Virus record (IMG/VR): IMGVR_UViG_3300013111_000141
Location: 1 to 64,000 of that record
Strand: one strand, 5' to 3'
Origin: a virus
Length of the DNA stretch: 64,000 nucleotides
Below are positions 33,359-41,633 of this stretch, in pieces (position 1 is the stretch's first letter; each line of letters opens with the position of its first letter). The notes beneath the pieces were generated by a model. That model had not been told where the DNA came from, ran no database searches, and saw nothing but the letters and a program-made list of their open reading frames with translations. The translations under genes were made by a program, and so were the position numbers.

Positions 33359-33565
33359 TCAATCTCCAGAGCAATTAACAGAAATAGAATTTGGTGATAC
33401 TGCCTTAGCTACTTGTTTCCTAAGTGCAACCCTCCCCCCTTCAGGGATTGAACAATAACGTTCTACTGTATGGGATGCTGCCAATTTTACAGTATCCATC
33501 TTAGAACAACCTTGTATAAGTATAATACTTAATATCACTAAACACCACTTAAATAATTTCTTCAT
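33359..33565 (-). CDS. Small lipoprotein
   Basis: IQGC lipobox; AAGGAG SD. Confidence 0.55.
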   Translation of the reverse strand: MKKLFKWCLVILSIILIQGCSKMDTVKLAASHTVERYCSIPEGGRVALRKQVAKAVSPNSISVNCSGD

Positions 33566-33794
33566 TTCCCACTCCTTAATAAGTTTTCAAATCGTTTTTC
33601 TTGTTTCACCTTTGACTCCTTCTCAACATTTAATGCCGACATTTCACGGACAATAACCCTATACCGTAAAGCACATATAAGAATATCCTTATCAATATTT
33701 TCAATTGATCGATCAAATTTATTACAATTCATTATATATCTCTTCTTGTTAGAATAATTCCGCCAAAATTGACGGAATATTCATAATAAATATA

Positions 33795-34115
33795 TTATTT
33801 AAAATTATATCGGTACTCTACCGCTACATTTTCTGCATGTTGATCAGTACCCTCAAATAAATCCCATGGTCCAGACATATTGAATCGATTATACATTAAA
33901 CCAACTTCATGAACCTTTCCAGTTCCAATATAAGCATTAGTAAAAAGTCGTAACGCGTTAGTATCTTGTGAACCAGACCAAAAATTACTCATTCCATCTG
34001 CATCTTGTGTCCAACGAAATCCAGCATCTTTCATCTGAATTGAAAATGCATCCTCGGCCATAGATGTTGTTGTAAACGCAAATAATACTGTAAATAACAT
34101 TAATATTTTTTTCAT
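33795..34115 (-). CDS. Secreted/outer-membrane beta-rich protein
   Basis: Signal peptide MKKILMLF...SMA; C-terminal VEYRYNF. Confidence 0.5.
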   Translation of the reverse strand: MKKILMLFTVLFAFTTTSMAEDAFSIQMKDAGFRWTQDADGMSNFWSGSQDTNALRLFTNAYIGTGKVHEVGLMYNRFNMSGPWDLFEGTDQHAENVAVEYRYNFK

Positions 34116-34184
34116 ATTTTTTCCTCTTTGTTGTAAAAATGAAACATAATGTGGATATTTTCCAACACCCACATTATATATATA

Positions 34185-34341
34185 AGAGGATTTCTGTTGC
34201 CAAGTATCCCCAAACTCCGCATACTTATATACTAAGCTGCAACCGCAAAATTATCATCTGCATTTATTTTTTTGATTTTTACATCTTTCTTGATGAATAG
34301 TCCATATACAATATAATACATTGTCGAATCTGTTCTCCCCC
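34185..34341 (-). ncRNA. ssrA: Two-piece tmRNA, coding piece (tag ADDNFAVAA)
   Basis: 5' GGGGGAGAACAGATTCGAC; ATAAAT|GCA resume context; tag ends in AA-stop; 3' CTTGGCAACAGAA motif of alpha-type tmRNA. Confidence 0.88.
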
Positions 34342-34622
34342 ACAAAAATTGTCTAGTCACAACCCAAAAGTCCTGCAGAACTTCATGAACGCCACTTGCG
34401 GCTAAGGATACCCGGGAGTTTGTTGTCCCGTGTTCACATACGTCCATATATACATTGTAGAACCCATCATCGCTGGTTTGGTGCTAAGTTAAATGAACCC
34501 GTTGGCTCTGGGGGAATTCCCCCTCACCATCTCTCGTACGCTCCATCTATTCTACTAAGTATACCGTGTGTCACACATTCCGTATACATTGAATAATATA
34601 CATCTACACTAAACAATTTATG
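34342..34622 (-). ncRNA. Unassigned structured RNA in the tmRNA intervening segment
   Basis: Closed by AAATTGTTTAGT/ACTAGACAATTT; several internal helices; GC-richer than its flanks. Confidence 0.55.
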
Positions 34623-34672
34623 TGGAAGAGGTGGGAATCGCACCCACGTCCAACATACATAAAATATACTTC
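34623..34672 (-). ncRNA. ssrA: Two-piece tmRNA, acceptor piece
   Basis: GGAC-GTGGG-TGCGATT-CCCAC-CTCTTCC-A; pairs with GGGGGAG to give G3:U70; full CCA not encoded. Confidence 0.88.
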
Positions 34673-34678
34673 AAACTA

Positions 34679-34981
34679 TTATGCTTTTAACTTTAAATCT
34701 TCCTCCGTTACAATATCTTCATACCCATCATACTCACGAACATAAAACTTTAACCCCTCTGTAACATATGACAATTTCATATTATCAAACTCATATAAAT
34801 TATGAGTTGGTTCTGACATCGCCATCACCTGTTTATGAAATGATTTCTCATCCCCATGCAAAAATTCATAAATTAATTCAGCATCCATTCTAAGTGATTG
34901 GGGTTTAATGGCAAATCCACTACCCCAACCAGCATGTATAAGAACCCCTACTTTACCATCTGCACTATAATATTTACCCAC
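34679..34981 (-). CDS. Conserved phage hypothetical protein
   Basis: VL...GWGSG ... F.V.EYDG.E. Confidence 0.6.
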   Translation of the reverse strand: MGKYYSADGKVGVLIHAGWGSGFAIKPQSLRMDAELIYEFLHGDEKSFHKQVMAMSEPTHNLYEFDNMKLSYVTEGLKFYVREYDGYEDIVTEEDLKLKA

Positions 34982-36962
34982 CTACGTTCTCCACTAATTG
35001 CGAACCTTGTGAATGATATTGTTTAGTAATTTCTTTGTTTACTTCATCTGAATAATGTAATGGTCCACCCCTAAATGGAGCAAATCCAGTACCAAAAATA
35101 ATACCAGAATCTATAAGGTCAGAAGATTCTACAATACCCTCATCTAAACATAATTTACACTCTGAAATAATTTTCCCTATTAACCTTGACTTTATCTCTA
35201 TTTTAGGATCTGCATAAATCTTATCTACGGGTTTACCTTTATTATATATATAAAACCCCCTACCAGATTTAATACCCAATTTACCTTTGTCTACTAACTT
35301 CTTTAATCTCTTTGGAACAGTAATTCCAAGATCCTCACTTATTATATCCGTAACAAAATAACAAACATCAAGTCCTACAGTATCTGCCAATAATAAAGGT
35401 CCCATTGGCATACCAAAATCAGTAAAAGAATTGTCAATTTCTTCTTTACTATATCCTTCATCTAACATATTAATAGCCTCAATAAGTGTAGGCATTAACA
35501 CACGATTAACTAAAAATCCTGGACTTGATTTAACTTTTAATGGTAACTTATCAATATGTCTACAAAATGACATAGACTTCTCTATAACATCCTCTGAAGT
35601 AATATCTGAATATACCACTTCAACCAAAGGCATTTTTGCAACTGGATTAAAAAAGTGTATACCAACTAATCTCTCAGGATTTTTCATTTCACTTGATAAT
35701 ACTTCCAACTTGATAGAAGATGTATTAGTGCCCAATATAGCGGTACTTTTCATTTCAGATTCTAATTCACTATATAAGTGACGTTTAATATCCGCATTTT
35801 CAACAATAGCCTCAATGACTATATCTGCGGAAGATATACCATATCCATTTTTATCAGGAATCAACCTATCATACACTTCATTGATTAAATAATCCTTCCC
35901 AGAAAATCTTTTTGCATAAAATTTATACGATCTTTTCATTGCGGCAGCTATGGTGTTATCATCAATATCCTGTAAAGTCACCTTATATCCCCTTAGAGAC
36001 GCCCACATTGCAATATCTCCACCCATTGCACCAGCACCTATAACGTGGACATGTTTAAGATCTAACTTAGATTTATCACCAGAAGATTTAAGTAAATCCT
36101 GTAACTTAAACACTCGTAATAAATTCTTCGCAGTATCTGTCATTGCTAACTTAGAAACTGACTCCGCCTCTGCATTCATAAGATGATGCTCATTATATCC
36201 ATATTTTTCCCATATATCAACTAAAGCATATGGTGCTGGATAGTGTGATTTTTTTACCTCTTTCCTTAAAGTTCTACGCAATTGCATTGATAATAACCTT
36301 CTACCAATACCAGAATTCAATACATAATCTAATTTATCTGGTCTTCTAACTGGTGGACACTTTGCAAGTACATCTTCCGCAGATTTAACTAATAAACGTT
36401 CAGGAACCGCATAATCAACTAATCCCATCTTTTTTGCTTGATATACTGATAAAGTACGTCCACTTAACATCATACCCATAGCCTTAATAACACCAAGAAC
36501 TCTAATAGACCTAACAGAACCACCAAATCCAGGATGTATACCCAACTTAACTTCAGGAAATCCGACTCGGATATTAGGTGAATCTAATATAATTCTATAA
36601 TCACATGATAATGCAAGTTCCAATCCACCACCAAGACACAATCCATTAATTAATGCTAATGTAGGAAATTCCATGTCATCAATTAACCACATCACTTCTT
36701 GTCCTTTAGTAATGGCTTCATAAGCATCATCATACTCATGAAAATCCTTAAATTCTGTAACATCAGCACCAGCAATAAACCCAGTTGATTTATCAGAACA
36801 AATAACCATACCATCAGGATTATCAGATTTAACCTCTAATAATACATCTTTTAATTCCGTTAATACTTCACCAGATAATACATTCATACTACCATAAGAA
36901 TAATCAAAATGTACCCATGCTATATTGCTAAAATATTTTAATTTGAAATGTTTATAATTCAT
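34974..36962 (-). CDS. fadJ: Fatty-acid oxidation multifunctional alpha subunit (enoyl-CoA hydratase/3-hydroxyacyl-CoA dehydrogenase)
   Basis: FIAGAD, GGGLELAL, PEVKLG, GAGAMG, IEAIVE, NTSS, HFFNP, PGFLVNR, PMGP. Confidence 0.93.
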   Translation of the reverse strand: MNYKHFKLKYFSNIAWVHFDYSYGSMNVLSGEVLTELKDVLLEVKSDNPDGMVICSDKSTGFIAGADVTEFKDFHEYDDAYEAITKGQEVMWLIDDMEFPTLALINGLCLGGGLELALSCDYRIILDSPNIRVGFPEVKLGIHPGFGGSVRSIRVLGVIKAMGMMLSGRTLSVYQAKKMGLVDYAVPERLLVKSAEDVLAKCPPVRRPDKLDYVLNSGIGRRLLSMQLRRTLRKEVKKSHYPAPYALVDIWEKYGYNEHHLMNAEAESVSKLAMTDTAKNLLRVFKLQDLLKSSGDKSKLDLKHVHVIGAGAMGGDIAMWASLRGYKVTLQDIDDNTIAAAMKRSYKFYAKRFSGKDYLINEVYDRLIPDKNGYGISSADIVIEAIVENADIKRHLYSELESEMKSTAILGTNTSSIKLEVLSSEMKNPERLVGIHFFNPVAKMPLVEVVYSDITSEDVIEKSMSFCRHIDKLPLKVKSSPGFLVNRVLMPTLIEAINMLDEGYSKEEIDNSFTDFGMPMGPLLLADTVGLDVCYFVTDIISEDLGITVPKRLKKLVDKGKLGIKSGRGFYIYNKGKPVDKIYADPKIEIKSRLIGKIISECKLCLDEGIVESSDLIDSGIIFGTGFAPFRGGPLHYSDEVNKEITKQYHSQGSQLVENVGG

Positions 36963-36965
36963 AAG

Positions 36966-38270
36966 TTATCTCTTTAAATTTTCAACTAATATTGCACCAC
37001 CTTGCCCATGCCCAATACATAAAGATGCAACCCCATAATGACCACCATTTGATTCTAACGTCTTAATTAAATGATATACTATCCGTGTTCCAGAAGCACC
37101 TACAGGATGACCCATACTAATAGAACCACCATGAACATTTAGTTTTTCATCAGGTATTAACCCAAATGGTTCATCCAATCCAAACTCAGATAAACAATAA
37201 TCCACATCATTCATTGCCCTTGTACAACCAATAACTTGTGATGCAAAAGCTTCATTTAATTCCCAACTATCAATATCATCACATCGTAACCCATTTCTCA
37301 TAACAAGAGGAACTATTGACTGAACTGGACCCAATCCCATCTCTGATGGATCTACTCCAGCCCACTTAGTATCAATAATTTTTGCAATAGCTTTATCACG
37401 TAACCCATACTTATCCAAGGCATCCTCACTTGCCAACAAAACAAATGAAGCACCATCCGTAATAGGTGAAGAATTACCCGCAGTCACATTACCAAATATT
37501 TTATCAAAAACTGGTCTTAATTTCCCTAATTTTTCAATAGTGTTCTTAGATCTAACAGATTCGTCTTTATTATAAAAATTCCCATCAGTATCATATATAG
37601 TAACAATCTCATCCTCTAATACATTAGTATTTTGTGATATCGACGCTTTCATATGACTGTTTAATGAATAATCATCCATATCATTTCTAGATATATTAAA
37701 CTTATATGCCAAATTCTCAGCAGTCTGACCCATTGATAAATTAATAGTTGGATCTTTTAATGCACGTAATAAACTAATCACTGGGACTAATAACTTAGGT
37801 CTAAACTTAAGTAACACAGACAACTTCTTAGATAATGTCTTAGCTAATGTAAATTCAGACAACCACATAGTCATATCATCATTAAATAATAATGGTGCCC
37901 TACTCATAGTTTCCGTACCACCAGCAATAATCAAATCGGACTGTCCACAAGATATACTCCTATATGCCGAATCAATTGACTGCAAACCAGAAGCACAATT
38001 TCGTTGTACCGTATATGCCGGTATATTAACATTAAGACCTAATCGTAATGCTAACAATTTTGCAATATTACACTCATCAGCGTTAGGATTCATACAACCA
38101 ACAACCAATTCATCCACATCATCATTACTAATATCATTACGAATTAACATAGGTCTAACCGCCTGAATCGCCAAATCCAATGCCTTAAACTTTCCAGGAC
38201 TTCCCTTCGCCTTTAAAAAAGGTGTCCTACTACCATCTACAATATATACATCATTTAACTTGTATTTCAT
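36966..38270 (-). CDS. fadI: Acetyl-CoA C-acyltransferase (thiolase)
   Basis: RNCASG, NEAFA, GHPVGASG, LCIGHGQG. Confidence 0.92.
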   Translation of the reverse strand: MKYKLNDVYIVDGSRTPFLKAKGSPGKFKALDLAIQAVRPMLIRNDISNDDVDELVVGCMNPNADECNIAKLLALRLGLNVNIPAYTVQRNCASGLQSIDSAYRSISCGQSDLIIAGGTETMSRAPLLFNDDMTMWLSEFTLAKTLSKKLSVLLKFRPKLLVPVISLLRALKDPTINLSMGQTAENLAYKFNISRNDMDDYSLNSHMKASISQNTNVLEDEIVTIYDTDGNFYNKDESVRSKNTIEKLGKLRPVFDKIFGNVTAGNSSPITDGASFVLLASEDALDKYGLRDKAIAKIIDTKWAGVDPSEMGLGPVQSIVPLVMRNGLRCDDIDSWELNEAFASQVIGCTRAMNDVDYCLSEFGLDEPFGLIPDEKLNVHGGSISMGHPVGASGTRIVYHLIKTLESNGGHYGVASLCIGHGQGGAILVENLKR

Positions 38271-38471
38271 AACTACTATCTCCCTTCTTAAGGGTCATCC
38301 TTTAAATTCATAAATTTCTTACGTTCCAATAATAACATATAACACCTACCACAATGCCACGTGCTATCGTCTTTTAATAATTCTTCAATCAATGTCAAAT
38401 TCATCTCACTATAACTAATATCATTACATAAACATATTATATTCCTATGTCTATTCATATTTTGATATATC

Positions 38472-38660
38472 CTATATCGGTATGTTATCCTTAACTAAAA
38501 TAAGTCCTGTTGCAATAATTATCCATATCGGTATTAATACAAATAAAATACCTAACAATATTTTATTTGTAATATCTTCAGCTTTCACCGACATAGACAT
38601 AACGTTACATAAAATCACAAATGAAAGTACACATAACCAAACTATTTCAAACCACCCCAT
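38472..38660 (-). CDS. Small two-TM membrane protein
   Basis: AGGAG SD; hydrophobic. Confidence 0.5.
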   Translation of the reverse strand: MGWFEIVWLCVLSFVILCNVMSMSVKAEDITNKILLGILFVLIPIWIIIATGLILVKDNIPI

Positions 38661-38669
38661 ATTAAACTC

Positions 38670-39689
<1,020 letters not shown>

Positions 39690-39701
39690 TAAATCACCGC
39701 A

Positions 39702-41633
39702 TTATTTGGTTTCGGGTTTACCCTCTGGAACAGGATCCACTGGTTCTTCAACCACCTCTGCATTGACAACTTCGGCATCTACAGTCTCGGATGTTGTAGT
39801 GGAATCATCTCCAACATCTTCCCCTGTTGGTTCTGGTTTTTGTAATTTTGCAGACAACTCTACTAATGATTGTACTTTAGTATTAATATCATCTAAATCT
39901 TCACCAGACATAGACTCTTTTAATTCTGCAACACTATTTACAATATCAGTTCTTTCTTCATCAGTAATTACAATTTCCTCATCTGATAATTTACCCTCAA
40001 CATCATTAATAAATCCTTCAGCCATATTTCTAGCACCAACTAATGCAGTATACTTCTCATCTGCCTCTTTATGTTCTTCACCCTCTTTAATCATACGTTC
40101 TACATCCTCATCAGATAATCCAGATGAAGATTTAATTTCAATGGACTGTTCCTTACCAGTATTTTTATCTTTGGCAGAAACATGCATAATACCATTAGCA
40201 TCAATATTGAATTCAACTTCAATTTGTGGTGTTCCGCGTGGTCCTGGTTGAATTTCTGTCAAATCAAACCTACCTAAAGAATTGTTACCAGAAGCAACTG
40301 AACGTTCACCTTGCAGAACATGAATAGTAACTGCCGGTTGATTATCTTCGGCAGTTGAAAATACTTCACTTTTTTTCGTTGGAATAGTAGTATTCTTTTC
40401 AATTAATGTGGTCATTACACCACCCATAGTTTCAATACCTAATGATAATGGAGTTACATCAAGCAATAATACATTATCAATACCACCAGATAACACACCA
40501 CCCTGTGTAGCAGCACCAAGAGCAACTGACTCATCAGGATTTACATCCTTTCTCGGTTCAATACCAAAAATAGATTTTACCATTTCTTGAACTTTAGGCA
40601 TTCTAGTTTGTCCACCAACTAAAATAACATCATCAACCTTAGTAACATCTGCATCCTTTAAAGCAGTAACACATGGGGTTTTTGTACGTTCAATTAATTC
40701 AGATACCATCTTCTCCAATTTAGAACGTGAAATCTTAACATTTAAATGTTTAGGACCAGTTGCATCCGCAGTAATATATGGTAAATTTACTTCAGTTTCT
40801 TGAGTCGATGACAACTCAATTTTACACTTCTCTGCCGATTCTTTTAATCGTTGTAATGCAATAGGGTCATTATGAAGATCCACCCCGTTTTCTTTTTTAA
40901 ATTCATCACAAAGATAATCAATAAGTCGTAAATCAAAATCCTCACCACCTAAAAATGTATCACCATTAGTAGACAATACTTCAAAGGAATATTCTCCATC
41001 CACATTAGACATCTCAATAATAGAAACATCAAAAGTACCACCACCAAGATCATAAACAGCAACTACCTTATCATCTTTAACATCACCTTTATCTAAACCA
41101 TAAGATAAAGCTGCAGCTGTAGGTTCATTGATAATTCGCATAACATCTAGTCCAGCAATCTTACCAGCATCCTTTGTTGCTTGTCTTTGTGAATCATTAA
41201 AATAAGCAGGAACAGTAATAACTGCCTGTGTCACTTCAGAACCCAAATATGACTCCGCATCTTTTTTTAATTTCATTAAAATTTTTGATGAAATTTCTGG
41301 GGGAGATAATAACTCACCACCAGATTTTACCCACGCATCACCATTATCCGCCTCTACAATGTCATAAGGCACCATGGATATGTCCTTTTGAACTGCATCA
41401 TCTTTAAACTTTCTGCCAATTAATCTCTTAACCGCAAACAATGTATCTTTTGGATTAGTCACCGATTGTCTCTTAGCTGACTGTCCTACTAATATTTCCG
41501 AATCCGAATGTGAAACTATAGATGGTGTCGTCCTAGAACCTTCACCATTTTCAATTACTACTGCCTTACCATTCTCTAACACAGCTGCGCATGAATTAGT
41601 AGTACCCAAATCAATACCAATAATATTACCCAT
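39702..41633 (-). CDS. dnaK: Chaperone DnaK (Hsp70)
   Basis: [34 protein letters not shown]. Confidence 0.97.

Follow-up and report, generated by a model that had tools for sequence, protein, structure and literature searches.

A conserved, structured insert in the spacer of a permuted tmRNA gene shared by two lineages of T4-like phages

Two-piece tmRNAs of phages have been published (PMC9004378), and the spacers between the two pieces of such genes are regarded as waste. One tRNA-Ala and one repetitive element have been reported in tmRNA spacers of bacteria or archaeal bins (PMC11915505), the content of spacers is not described as functional in either paper (PMC9004378, PMC11915505), and no description of a conserved structured RNA in a tmRNA spacer was found in the literature. 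In a marine T4-like phage of ~32% G+C, the spacer is the best-conserved nucleotide stretch that the phage has in common with a distant lineage, which raises the question of what this segment is and what becomes of it when the tmRNA matures. The phage is represented by an IMG/VR virus record of 96.8 kb (IMGVR_UViG_3300013111_000141; completeness estimate 54%), and the window analysed here is the stretch of 64,000 nucleotides at positions 1 to 64,000 of that record.

The gene that holds the segment is a genuine permuted tmRNA, as it had been called from the sequence in a preliminary description. The Rfam model RF04321 matches the minus strand at 34232-34680 with 89.9 bits (cut-off 47, E 5.6e-16), in an alignment that covers model positions 1-213, that is, the full model, above the curated gathering score; the alpha_tmRNA model RF01849 reaches 46.6 bits, just below its cut-off of 50. 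Both pieces are joined by a 7-bp acceptor stem, GGGGGAG with CUCUUCC, whose third pair is G-U (G3-U70, alanine identity), and the tag ORF encodes ADDNFAVAA followed by a stop codon at 34232-34234. The acceptor piece, which is 100% identical across all close relatives, contains the 5' strands of the tRNA-domain helices, the T-arm, the acceptor 3' strand CUCUUCC (34630-34624) and the discriminator A34623, and the 3' tail of the coding piece pairs with it. CCA is not encoded after A34623, where CAU stands instead; 98 of 108 related phage tmRNAs encode CCA, whereas the clade of the window does not. Neither an SmpB gene nor a gene for a CCA-adding enzyme was found in the 96.8-kb record, which covers 54% of the genome. 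ARAGORN, run on the locus, did not detect the tmRNA, probably because of the long spacer, and tmRNAs with long spacers are therefore probably under-annotated in viromes. The features of the locus are collected in Table 1.

Table 1. Coordinates of the tmRNA gene and of the structural parts of its spacer (positions in the window).
Feature	Position	Strand	Remarks
tmRNA acceptor piece	34623..34717	-	RF04321 start 34680; RF01849 alignment extends to 34717
Intervening segment, putative 281-nt non-coding cargo RNA	34342..34622	-	no Rfam match; conserved; covariation and strand asymmetry
Closing stem, 5' strand AAAUUGUUUAGU	34608..34619	-	pairs with 34346-34357
AU-rich 5' hairpins	34567..34607	-	ambiguous pairing register; 3-nt loop insertion in the window relative to all relatives
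Long central arm: GUAUAC/GUAUAU, GUAGAAU/GUUCUAC, distal subdomain	34448..34564	-	
Fast-evolving distal subdomain: UAGAUGGA helix, UGGU/GCCA, GGGGG-AAUU-CCCCC hairpin	34491..34548	-	
Sequence-invariant 3' domain	34358..34445	-	115/116 identical to L011; ~90-95% identical to L317
Closing stem, 3' strand ACUAGACAAUUU	34346..34357	-	MFE fold and consensus
tmRNA coding piece	34183..34341	-	GGGGGAG from G1 = 34341, G3-U70, tag ORF, 3' tail
Intrinsic-terminator-like hairpin, then T run, 3' of the tmRNA	34144..34179	-	

The acceptor 3' strand, the discriminator A34623 and G1 at 34341 together fix the spacer at 34622-34342, exactly the 281 nt proposed earlier. As was also claimed, it is richer in G+C than its surroundings (43.1%, against 32-33% in the flanks and 32.1% in the window), a value that only 0.7% of 281-nt segments reach, and it is abnormally long. 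Its length was compared with that in several hundred phage and metagenome loci fetched by T-arm patterns, and the figures hold for the matches listed in this sample. The 64 permuted phage tmRNAs detected by ARAGORN have a median spacer of 66.5 nt (range 6-233), and an acceptor-complementarity scan yielded 109 distinct spacers with a median of ~60 nt, the family of the window being the longest non-spurious case listed. Most related tmRNAs have spacers of 30-100 nt, and in the sister clade, as defined by a tree of the mature tmRNA parts, the spacer measures 31 nt, so that the extra 250 nt are unnecessary for generic processing. The 12-bp stem described as closing the spacer is real, as both the MFE fold and the comparative consensus contain it, but it is not special to this insert, since spacer-closing stems of at least 9 bp adjoining the acceptor stem occur in 68 of 108 distinct phage tmRNAs. 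The insert is thus best described as a 250-nt loop expansion of the standard spacer hairpin of the family.

The premise that spacers of two-piece tmRNAs are normally short and discarded does not always hold, as several phage tmRNA spacers appear to hold small ORFs. Such ORFs, of ~29-70 codons, are seen in long spacers of L079 (390-576), L080 (minus strand, spacer of ~197 nt), L155 and L201/L230 (spacer of 245 nt), and some are preceded by a Shine-Dalgarno-like sequence, e.g. AGAGGA...ATG in L201. They occupy the same slot, from the acceptor 3' end to G1, often inside a closing stem. These cargos appear to be protein-coding and to have ribosome-binding sites, whereas that of the window is non-coding, with constraint at the RNA level. 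A search of 12 other long-spacer loci with Rfam placed no known family within their spacers.

Relatives were collected in two ways. A search with the FadB-like neighbour gene gave 12 loci, six of which (93-95% protein identity) have the same tmRNA with the insert; in relatives farther away (57-80% protein identity) the site is occupied by other genes and lacks a tmRNA. Anchor scans added three members of the lineage of the window (L265, L335, L337) and a second lineage, made up of L317 (full length), L311 (the same as L147) and L241, which both end at contig ends, and L287. The insert is conserved at 86-97% in at least ~13 contigs from these two phage lineages. L317 is a 135-kb contig of a different T4-like phage, whose core proteins are far from those of the record (gp45 28%, gp44 52%, gp62 46% and RegA 62% identity); its tmRNA (99 bits, tag AESNYALAA) lies after regA and mazG and before hsp20, a genomic site that differs from that in the window. 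With the tmRNA region as query, no match was obtained by blastn among 50,697 phage records, and neither blastn (word size 7) nor nhmmer --max with a family profile found a remote homologue outside the clade in 358 loci (2.5 Mb). Three exact or degenerate patterns from the interior of the insert and one from the acceptor end and closing stem retrieved only the same 7-8 contigs from IMG/VR, and two patterns had no match in 185,579 species genomes. The insert measures 278 or 281 nt in all variants. Within a lineage the 1-nt indels, five independent ones in all (L009 -1, +1; L011 +1, +1, +1; L317 +1, -1), always add up to a multiple of three though no frame is conserved, a pattern with an estimated chance of roughly 1 in 16.

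Within each lineage, the spacer changes far less than its surroundings. Between the window and L011, third codon positions are 69-86% identical in five flanking genes and 93% in the small ORF adjoining the tmRNA, whereas the mature pieces are 99-100% identical and the 3' 115 nt of the spacer differ at a single position (115/116 identical); spacer variation is confined to one central tract of 83 nt (34457-34539, 75% identical), which overlaps the distal subdomain. In the second lineage, L317 and L311 are 74-78% identical in the flanks and 97% in the acceptor piece and first 138 nt of the spacer. In both lineages, then, the spacer changes at roughly a tenth of the rate of the neighbouring genes, and over ~200 of the 281 nt this rate is as low as in the mature tmRNA. 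Between the window and L317 the spacer is 86% and the T-arm 97% identical, against 54% for the 5' part of the acceptor piece and 60% for the rest of the coding piece, which means that the insert is better conserved between the two lineages than the mRNA-like and pseudoknot part of the tmRNA itself. Judged from these alignments, the spacer is under strong purifying selection, and a rate of change about as low as that of the tmRNA makes a function probable. Part of the similarity between such distant phages could stem from lateral exchange instead of constraint. In the tree of mature parts, the two insert-bearing lineages are sisters, and given the rate ratio of ~10 a divergence of 11-14% between them fits vertical descent from an ancestor that already had the insert.

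What is conserved in the insert is in part its fold. An RNAalifold consensus from 8 full-length variants, effectively 4-5 independent ones, has 93 pairs with 98.9% of cells paired. Changes on both sides are seen in five pairs of the alignment, compared with 0-2 in slid controls: one lies in the closing stem (19-281), one in GUAGAAU/GUUCUAC (77-175), one in the UAGAUGGA helix (89-135) and two in the G5/C5 hairpin (110-121 and 112-119). Ten further pairs have changes on one side that all leave a standard pair, nine of them switches between G-U and G-C or A-U and one from A-U to G-U. The observed covariation score was reached by none of 500 shuffles, so that covariation among homologues, proposed earlier as a check, is present within this set of 4-5 independent variants. 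The closing-stem pair 19-281 occurs as C-G, U-G and U-A, and the central arm shows U-A to C-G at pair 77-175 and G-U to A-U at pair 67-185. In the distal subdomain the sequence drifts and the structure is kept, with three compensatory pairs and several G-C/G-U switches. Folding of the consensus yields -68.7 kcal/mol for the tmRNA strand, against -49.0 kcal/mol for its complement, an asymmetry which implies that the constraint acts on an RNA of tmRNA polarity. Covariation and asymmetry together bear out the idea of a structured spacer on this strand. The folding energy of the spacer alone (MFE -77.3 kcal/mol, z = -1.43) is not significant, as 18 of 200 shuffles fold equally well; the support for structure comes from the comparison of aligned relatives and not from energy.

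The helices proposed in the preliminary description agree with the consensus in six of eight cases, namely the closing stem, GUAGAAU/GUUCUAC, UAGAUGGA/UUCAUUUA, GGGGG-AAUU-CCCCC, UGAAC/GUUCA and CGGGA/UCCCG. The remaining two, AUGUAUAUU/AAUGUAUAU and GUAUAC/GUAUAC, are not supported: they lie in UA-repeat sequence and are broken in most relatives, with 86.7% of cells paired and no covariation, against 100% paired for an alternative pairing. The closing stem runs through ACA/UGU into the acceptor stem to give ~22 bp in total with one U-U mismatch. In the 3' domain the helices GGAC/GUUC and GUGAAC/GUUCAU, the latter enclosing CGGGA and GCC hairpins, are followed by a CAGGACU hairpin; these helices are predicted and unproven, since the sequence of the domain never varies. 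A tract of ~45 nt in this domain, loops included, is identical in both phage lineages, and such invariant loops suggest recognition by a protein or tertiary contacts. No promoter-like site was found on the tmRNA strand within the insert, which contains one weak terminator-like hairpin of 5 bp (34508-34495) that is not conserved in L011.

The insert matches no known RNA family, as had been supposed. A sensitive-mode scan of 34150-34750 with Rfam 15 (4227 models) gave no significant match in the insert; the best one there is a fragment of rliF with E = 4.8, and none comes near any gathering score. A group I intron was rejected because RF00028 has no match at E ≤ 10 and the last base of the spacer is U34342 and not G; splicing at the spacer would moreover fuse the acceptor ends to each other and leave the tmRNA without function. 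A retron ncRNA or omega RNA was discarded, as neither an RVT_1 nor a TnpB zinc-ribbon domain was found in the 96.8 kb (54% of the genome). A MITE or other mobile insertion was set aside too, the insert being single-copy and confined to tmRNA spacers, with no empty allele seen and no target-site duplication; its terminal inverted repeat is the generic closing stem of the tmRNA family. Elsewhere in the phage record, sequences complementary to the insert are limited to short matches at chance level.

The reading preferred here, to which we give a probability of about one half, is that the spacer of 281 nt is a non-coding cargo RNA, folded and under selection, whose excised form acts as a stable functional unit in trans. 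The cargo sits in the loop of the spacer-closing hairpin of the two-piece precursor, bounded by the discriminator A34623 and G1 34341, the predicted 3'-end and RNase P sites, as is expected of a stable RNA made from a tRNA precursor. Alanylation of the tmRNA needs both acceptor ends free, so every functional precursor has to be cut at both ends of the spacer, and from this need we infer release as a discrete RNA of ~280 nt. RNase P would cut on the 5' side of G1 and thus set the 3' end of the cargo, and a second cut would fall just after A34623. As the clade lacks an encoded CCA, this 3' cut is most likely endonucleolytic, of the RNase Z/BN type, and the host would add CCA afterwards. CCA-less tRNA precursors are classical substrates of RNase Z/BN, whose cut falls directly behind the discriminator and keeps the fragment downstream of it in one piece, and the CCA-less tRNAs of T4 require RNase BN. 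The two cuts would free an RNA of ~281 nt, CAUAAAUUG...CAAUUUUUGU, with its ends locked in the 12-bp stem and made one-for-one with the phage tmRNA. The 22-bp helix that is continuous with the acceptor stem might hinder rather than help RNase P. The analysis found neither a partner protein nor a target or known motif for the cargo; given the invariant single-stranded tracts, a protein-binding or decoy RNA is proposed as its most likely nature.

A wider version of this reading, which we put forward only tentatively, is that the insert founds a new class of phage ncRNA. The tmRNA gene would then serve as promoter and processing cassette, with release by RNase P and an RNase Z-type enzyme, and the RNA would act in trans during infection, kept by selection in distant T4-like phages independently of the tmRNA body. 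Candidate targets in this case would be a host RNA-binding protein, a nuclease or a defence sensor, which would be sequestered.

A tRNA-like unit as the processing vehicle for a second RNA already has precedents in the species 1 and 2 RNAs of T4, the leuZ spacer and herpesvirus tRNA-miRNA units. The species 1 and 2 RNAs (rnaC, rnaD) are small stable RNAs of ~120-140 nt in the T4 tRNA gene cluster, which are transcribed together with tRNA-like units and released by the enzymes of tRNA processing. They lie between tRNAs, whereas the insert of the window lies inside a tmRNA, and no sequence similarity between them was detected, the insert having no match in the phage collection. In E. coli, the 3' external transcribed spacer of glyW-cysT-leuZ is a functional by-product of tRNA-spacer processing that acts as an sRNA sponge, and in the tRNA-pre-miRNA units of the herpesvirus MHV68 the tRNA-like structure helps to process a second RNA. 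In the latter two systems a tRNA-like structure brings in RNase P, RNase Z or RNase E, and the 'waste' piece is the functional product. The leuZ spacer and the MHV68 units are short, base-pairing RNAs or miRNA precursors, unlike the multi-helix insert of 281 nt. If the excised piece is stable, it would represent a new phage RNA family with a built-in maturation route supplied by the host and, taken together with the ORFs in sibling spacers, would make the tmRNA spacer a general cargo slot in aquatic T4-like phages.

The closest known genes are the two-piece tmRNA genes of marine T4-like myophages, for example the ssrA of Melnitz (EXVC044M), a Methylophilales phage (MZ577097; PMC9004378), in which acceptor piece, spacer and coding piece follow one another as in the window. 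Both tmRNAs are alpha-type, with a tag ending in AA and a closing stem beside the acceptor stem. The Melnitz spacer measures ~140 nt and is closed by a stem of 8 bp (AAACACUU/AAGUGUUU); that of the window, with its 281 nt, differs from it in belonging to a sequence family conserved across lineages, in being G+C-rich and in having no encoded CCA before it. In Melnitz a glutamine riboswitch aptamer (L358:6399-6447) lies immediately 3' of the tmRNA and not in the ~140-nt spacer, and a riboswitch of this kind was rejected for the spacer of the window, where Rfam finds none.

The main rival to excision of a trans-acting RNA is a role in cis, which is less probable though by no means negligible: the insert would direct or control folding, the assembly of the two pieces, or the moment at which RNase P and the 3' nuclease cut, and would be degraded afterwards. 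It might, for example, be a sensor of a protein, a ligand or temperature that sets when the tmRNA becomes active. Conservation and covariation fit this reading equally well, the insert is physically part of the precursor with its closing stem coaxial with the acceptor stem, and the aptamer that directly follows the Melnitz tmRNA indicates that regulatory RNAs do associate with such genes (PMC9004378). The loss of the encoded CCA in the same clade also suggests an altered maturation route. Maturation as such, however, is accomplished with 31 nt of spacer in the sister clade and with 30-100 nt in most relatives, and no riboswitch or ribozyme family is matched at E ≤ 10. In addition, the same insert is found in two lineages with very different mature bodies, so that pairing with mature parts is unlikely.

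Next comes the possibility that the insert is a selfish or hitch-hiking, intron-like occupant of a slot that is freely removed, spread by recombination in the T-arm, acceptor and UUCGAC flanks, which are nearly identical, so that the similarity between the lineages would result from recent transfer. We regard this as improbable. It would explain why the insert and its tRNA-like flanks are 86-97% identical when other tmRNA parts reach 54-60% and core proteins 28-62%, why the tmRNA occupies different genomic sites in the two lineages, and why the G+C content of the insert lies 11 points above the phage average; other phage tmRNA spacers also carry small ORFs that are apparently exchangeable. A further point in its favour would be L287, a 1.6-kb low-coverage contig from sediment in which, at 352-931, a window-type acceptor piece is joined to an insert and coding piece of the L317 type. 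The two halves cannot pair, and the contig is probably an assembly chimera across the shared T-arm, a natural recombinant being possible. Against spread as a selfish element, the insert is present once in the 96.8-kb record and was not found outside tmRNA spacers in the IMG/VR pattern scans or the 185,579 species genomes, and no insert-free allele of either tmRNA lineage is seen among the matches listed. There is likewise no endonuclease gene and no target-site duplication, and the sister relationship of the insert-bearing lineages is compatible with one ancient gain. Nor does transfer alone account for the ~10-fold lower rate of change of the insert, relative to the flanking genes, in each of the two lineages.

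That the cargo is a protein-coding gene, on either strand, is very improbable. A 71-codon ORF (34447-34232) does run in frame into the tag, in L317 the entire insert is free of stops in an antisense frame, and the variants of 278 or 281 nt keep the length modulo 3. The sense ORF, however, lacks a Shine-Dalgarno sequence, is shifted out of frame by a 1-nt insertion in L009, L011 and L335 and comprises 28 codons in L317, and stops break the antisense frame in L009, L011 and L335. The ~17 nucleotide changes between the window and L317 would cause ~13 amino-acid changes, unlike those of a protein under purifying selection, and compensatory base-pair changes are a pattern of RNA. With five 1-nt indels breaking every frame on both strands and substitutions that are not protein-like, a coding cargo was rejected. 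Equally improbable is a neutral, overgrown spacer with chance hairpins, for which the folding z of only -1.43 and the very variable spacer length in the gene family might speak, and which the conservation data already contradict: ~8 to 20 changes would be expected from the 7-18% third-position divergence of the flanks where 115/116 positions are identical, 86% identity is kept across lineages otherwise saturated with change, and covariation and strand asymmetry are present.

The surroundings of the gene offer some further observations. The tmRNA locus lies among auxiliary genes for a thiolase, a FadB-like enzyme, DnaK/DnaJ, a lipase and a TPP enzyme, and the ORFs directly flanking the tmRNA have no Pfam match. 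Between the FadB-like gene and the TPP enzyme, positions 33359-34172 and 34679-34981 of the window form a variable island that contains a 100-aa ORF, the tmRNA and ORFs of 125, 56 and 68 aa. Among phages with ~90-95% identity elsewhere, the ORFs downstream of the tmRNA reach only 51-87%, and distant relatives have unrelated genes at the island and no tmRNA. Elsewhere in the comparison set, mini tRNA-like units occur in L024 (~890-965), L027 (~2030-2100) and L111 (~1020-1095), in which a 5' strand GGGGAAA...UUCGAC stands directly upstream of a tmRNA-type T-arm with encoded CCA, at a distance of ~40 nt and without a tag region; these may be tmRNA-derived tRNA-like domains without a coding part. 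Upstream of the tmRNA (34974-41633), the genes for thiolase, the FadB-like multifunctional enzyme, DnaJ and DnaK are consecutive, an unusual auxiliary set for a T4-like phage, and the identity of dnaJ, 67% in L002 and 96% in L009, indicates mosaicism.
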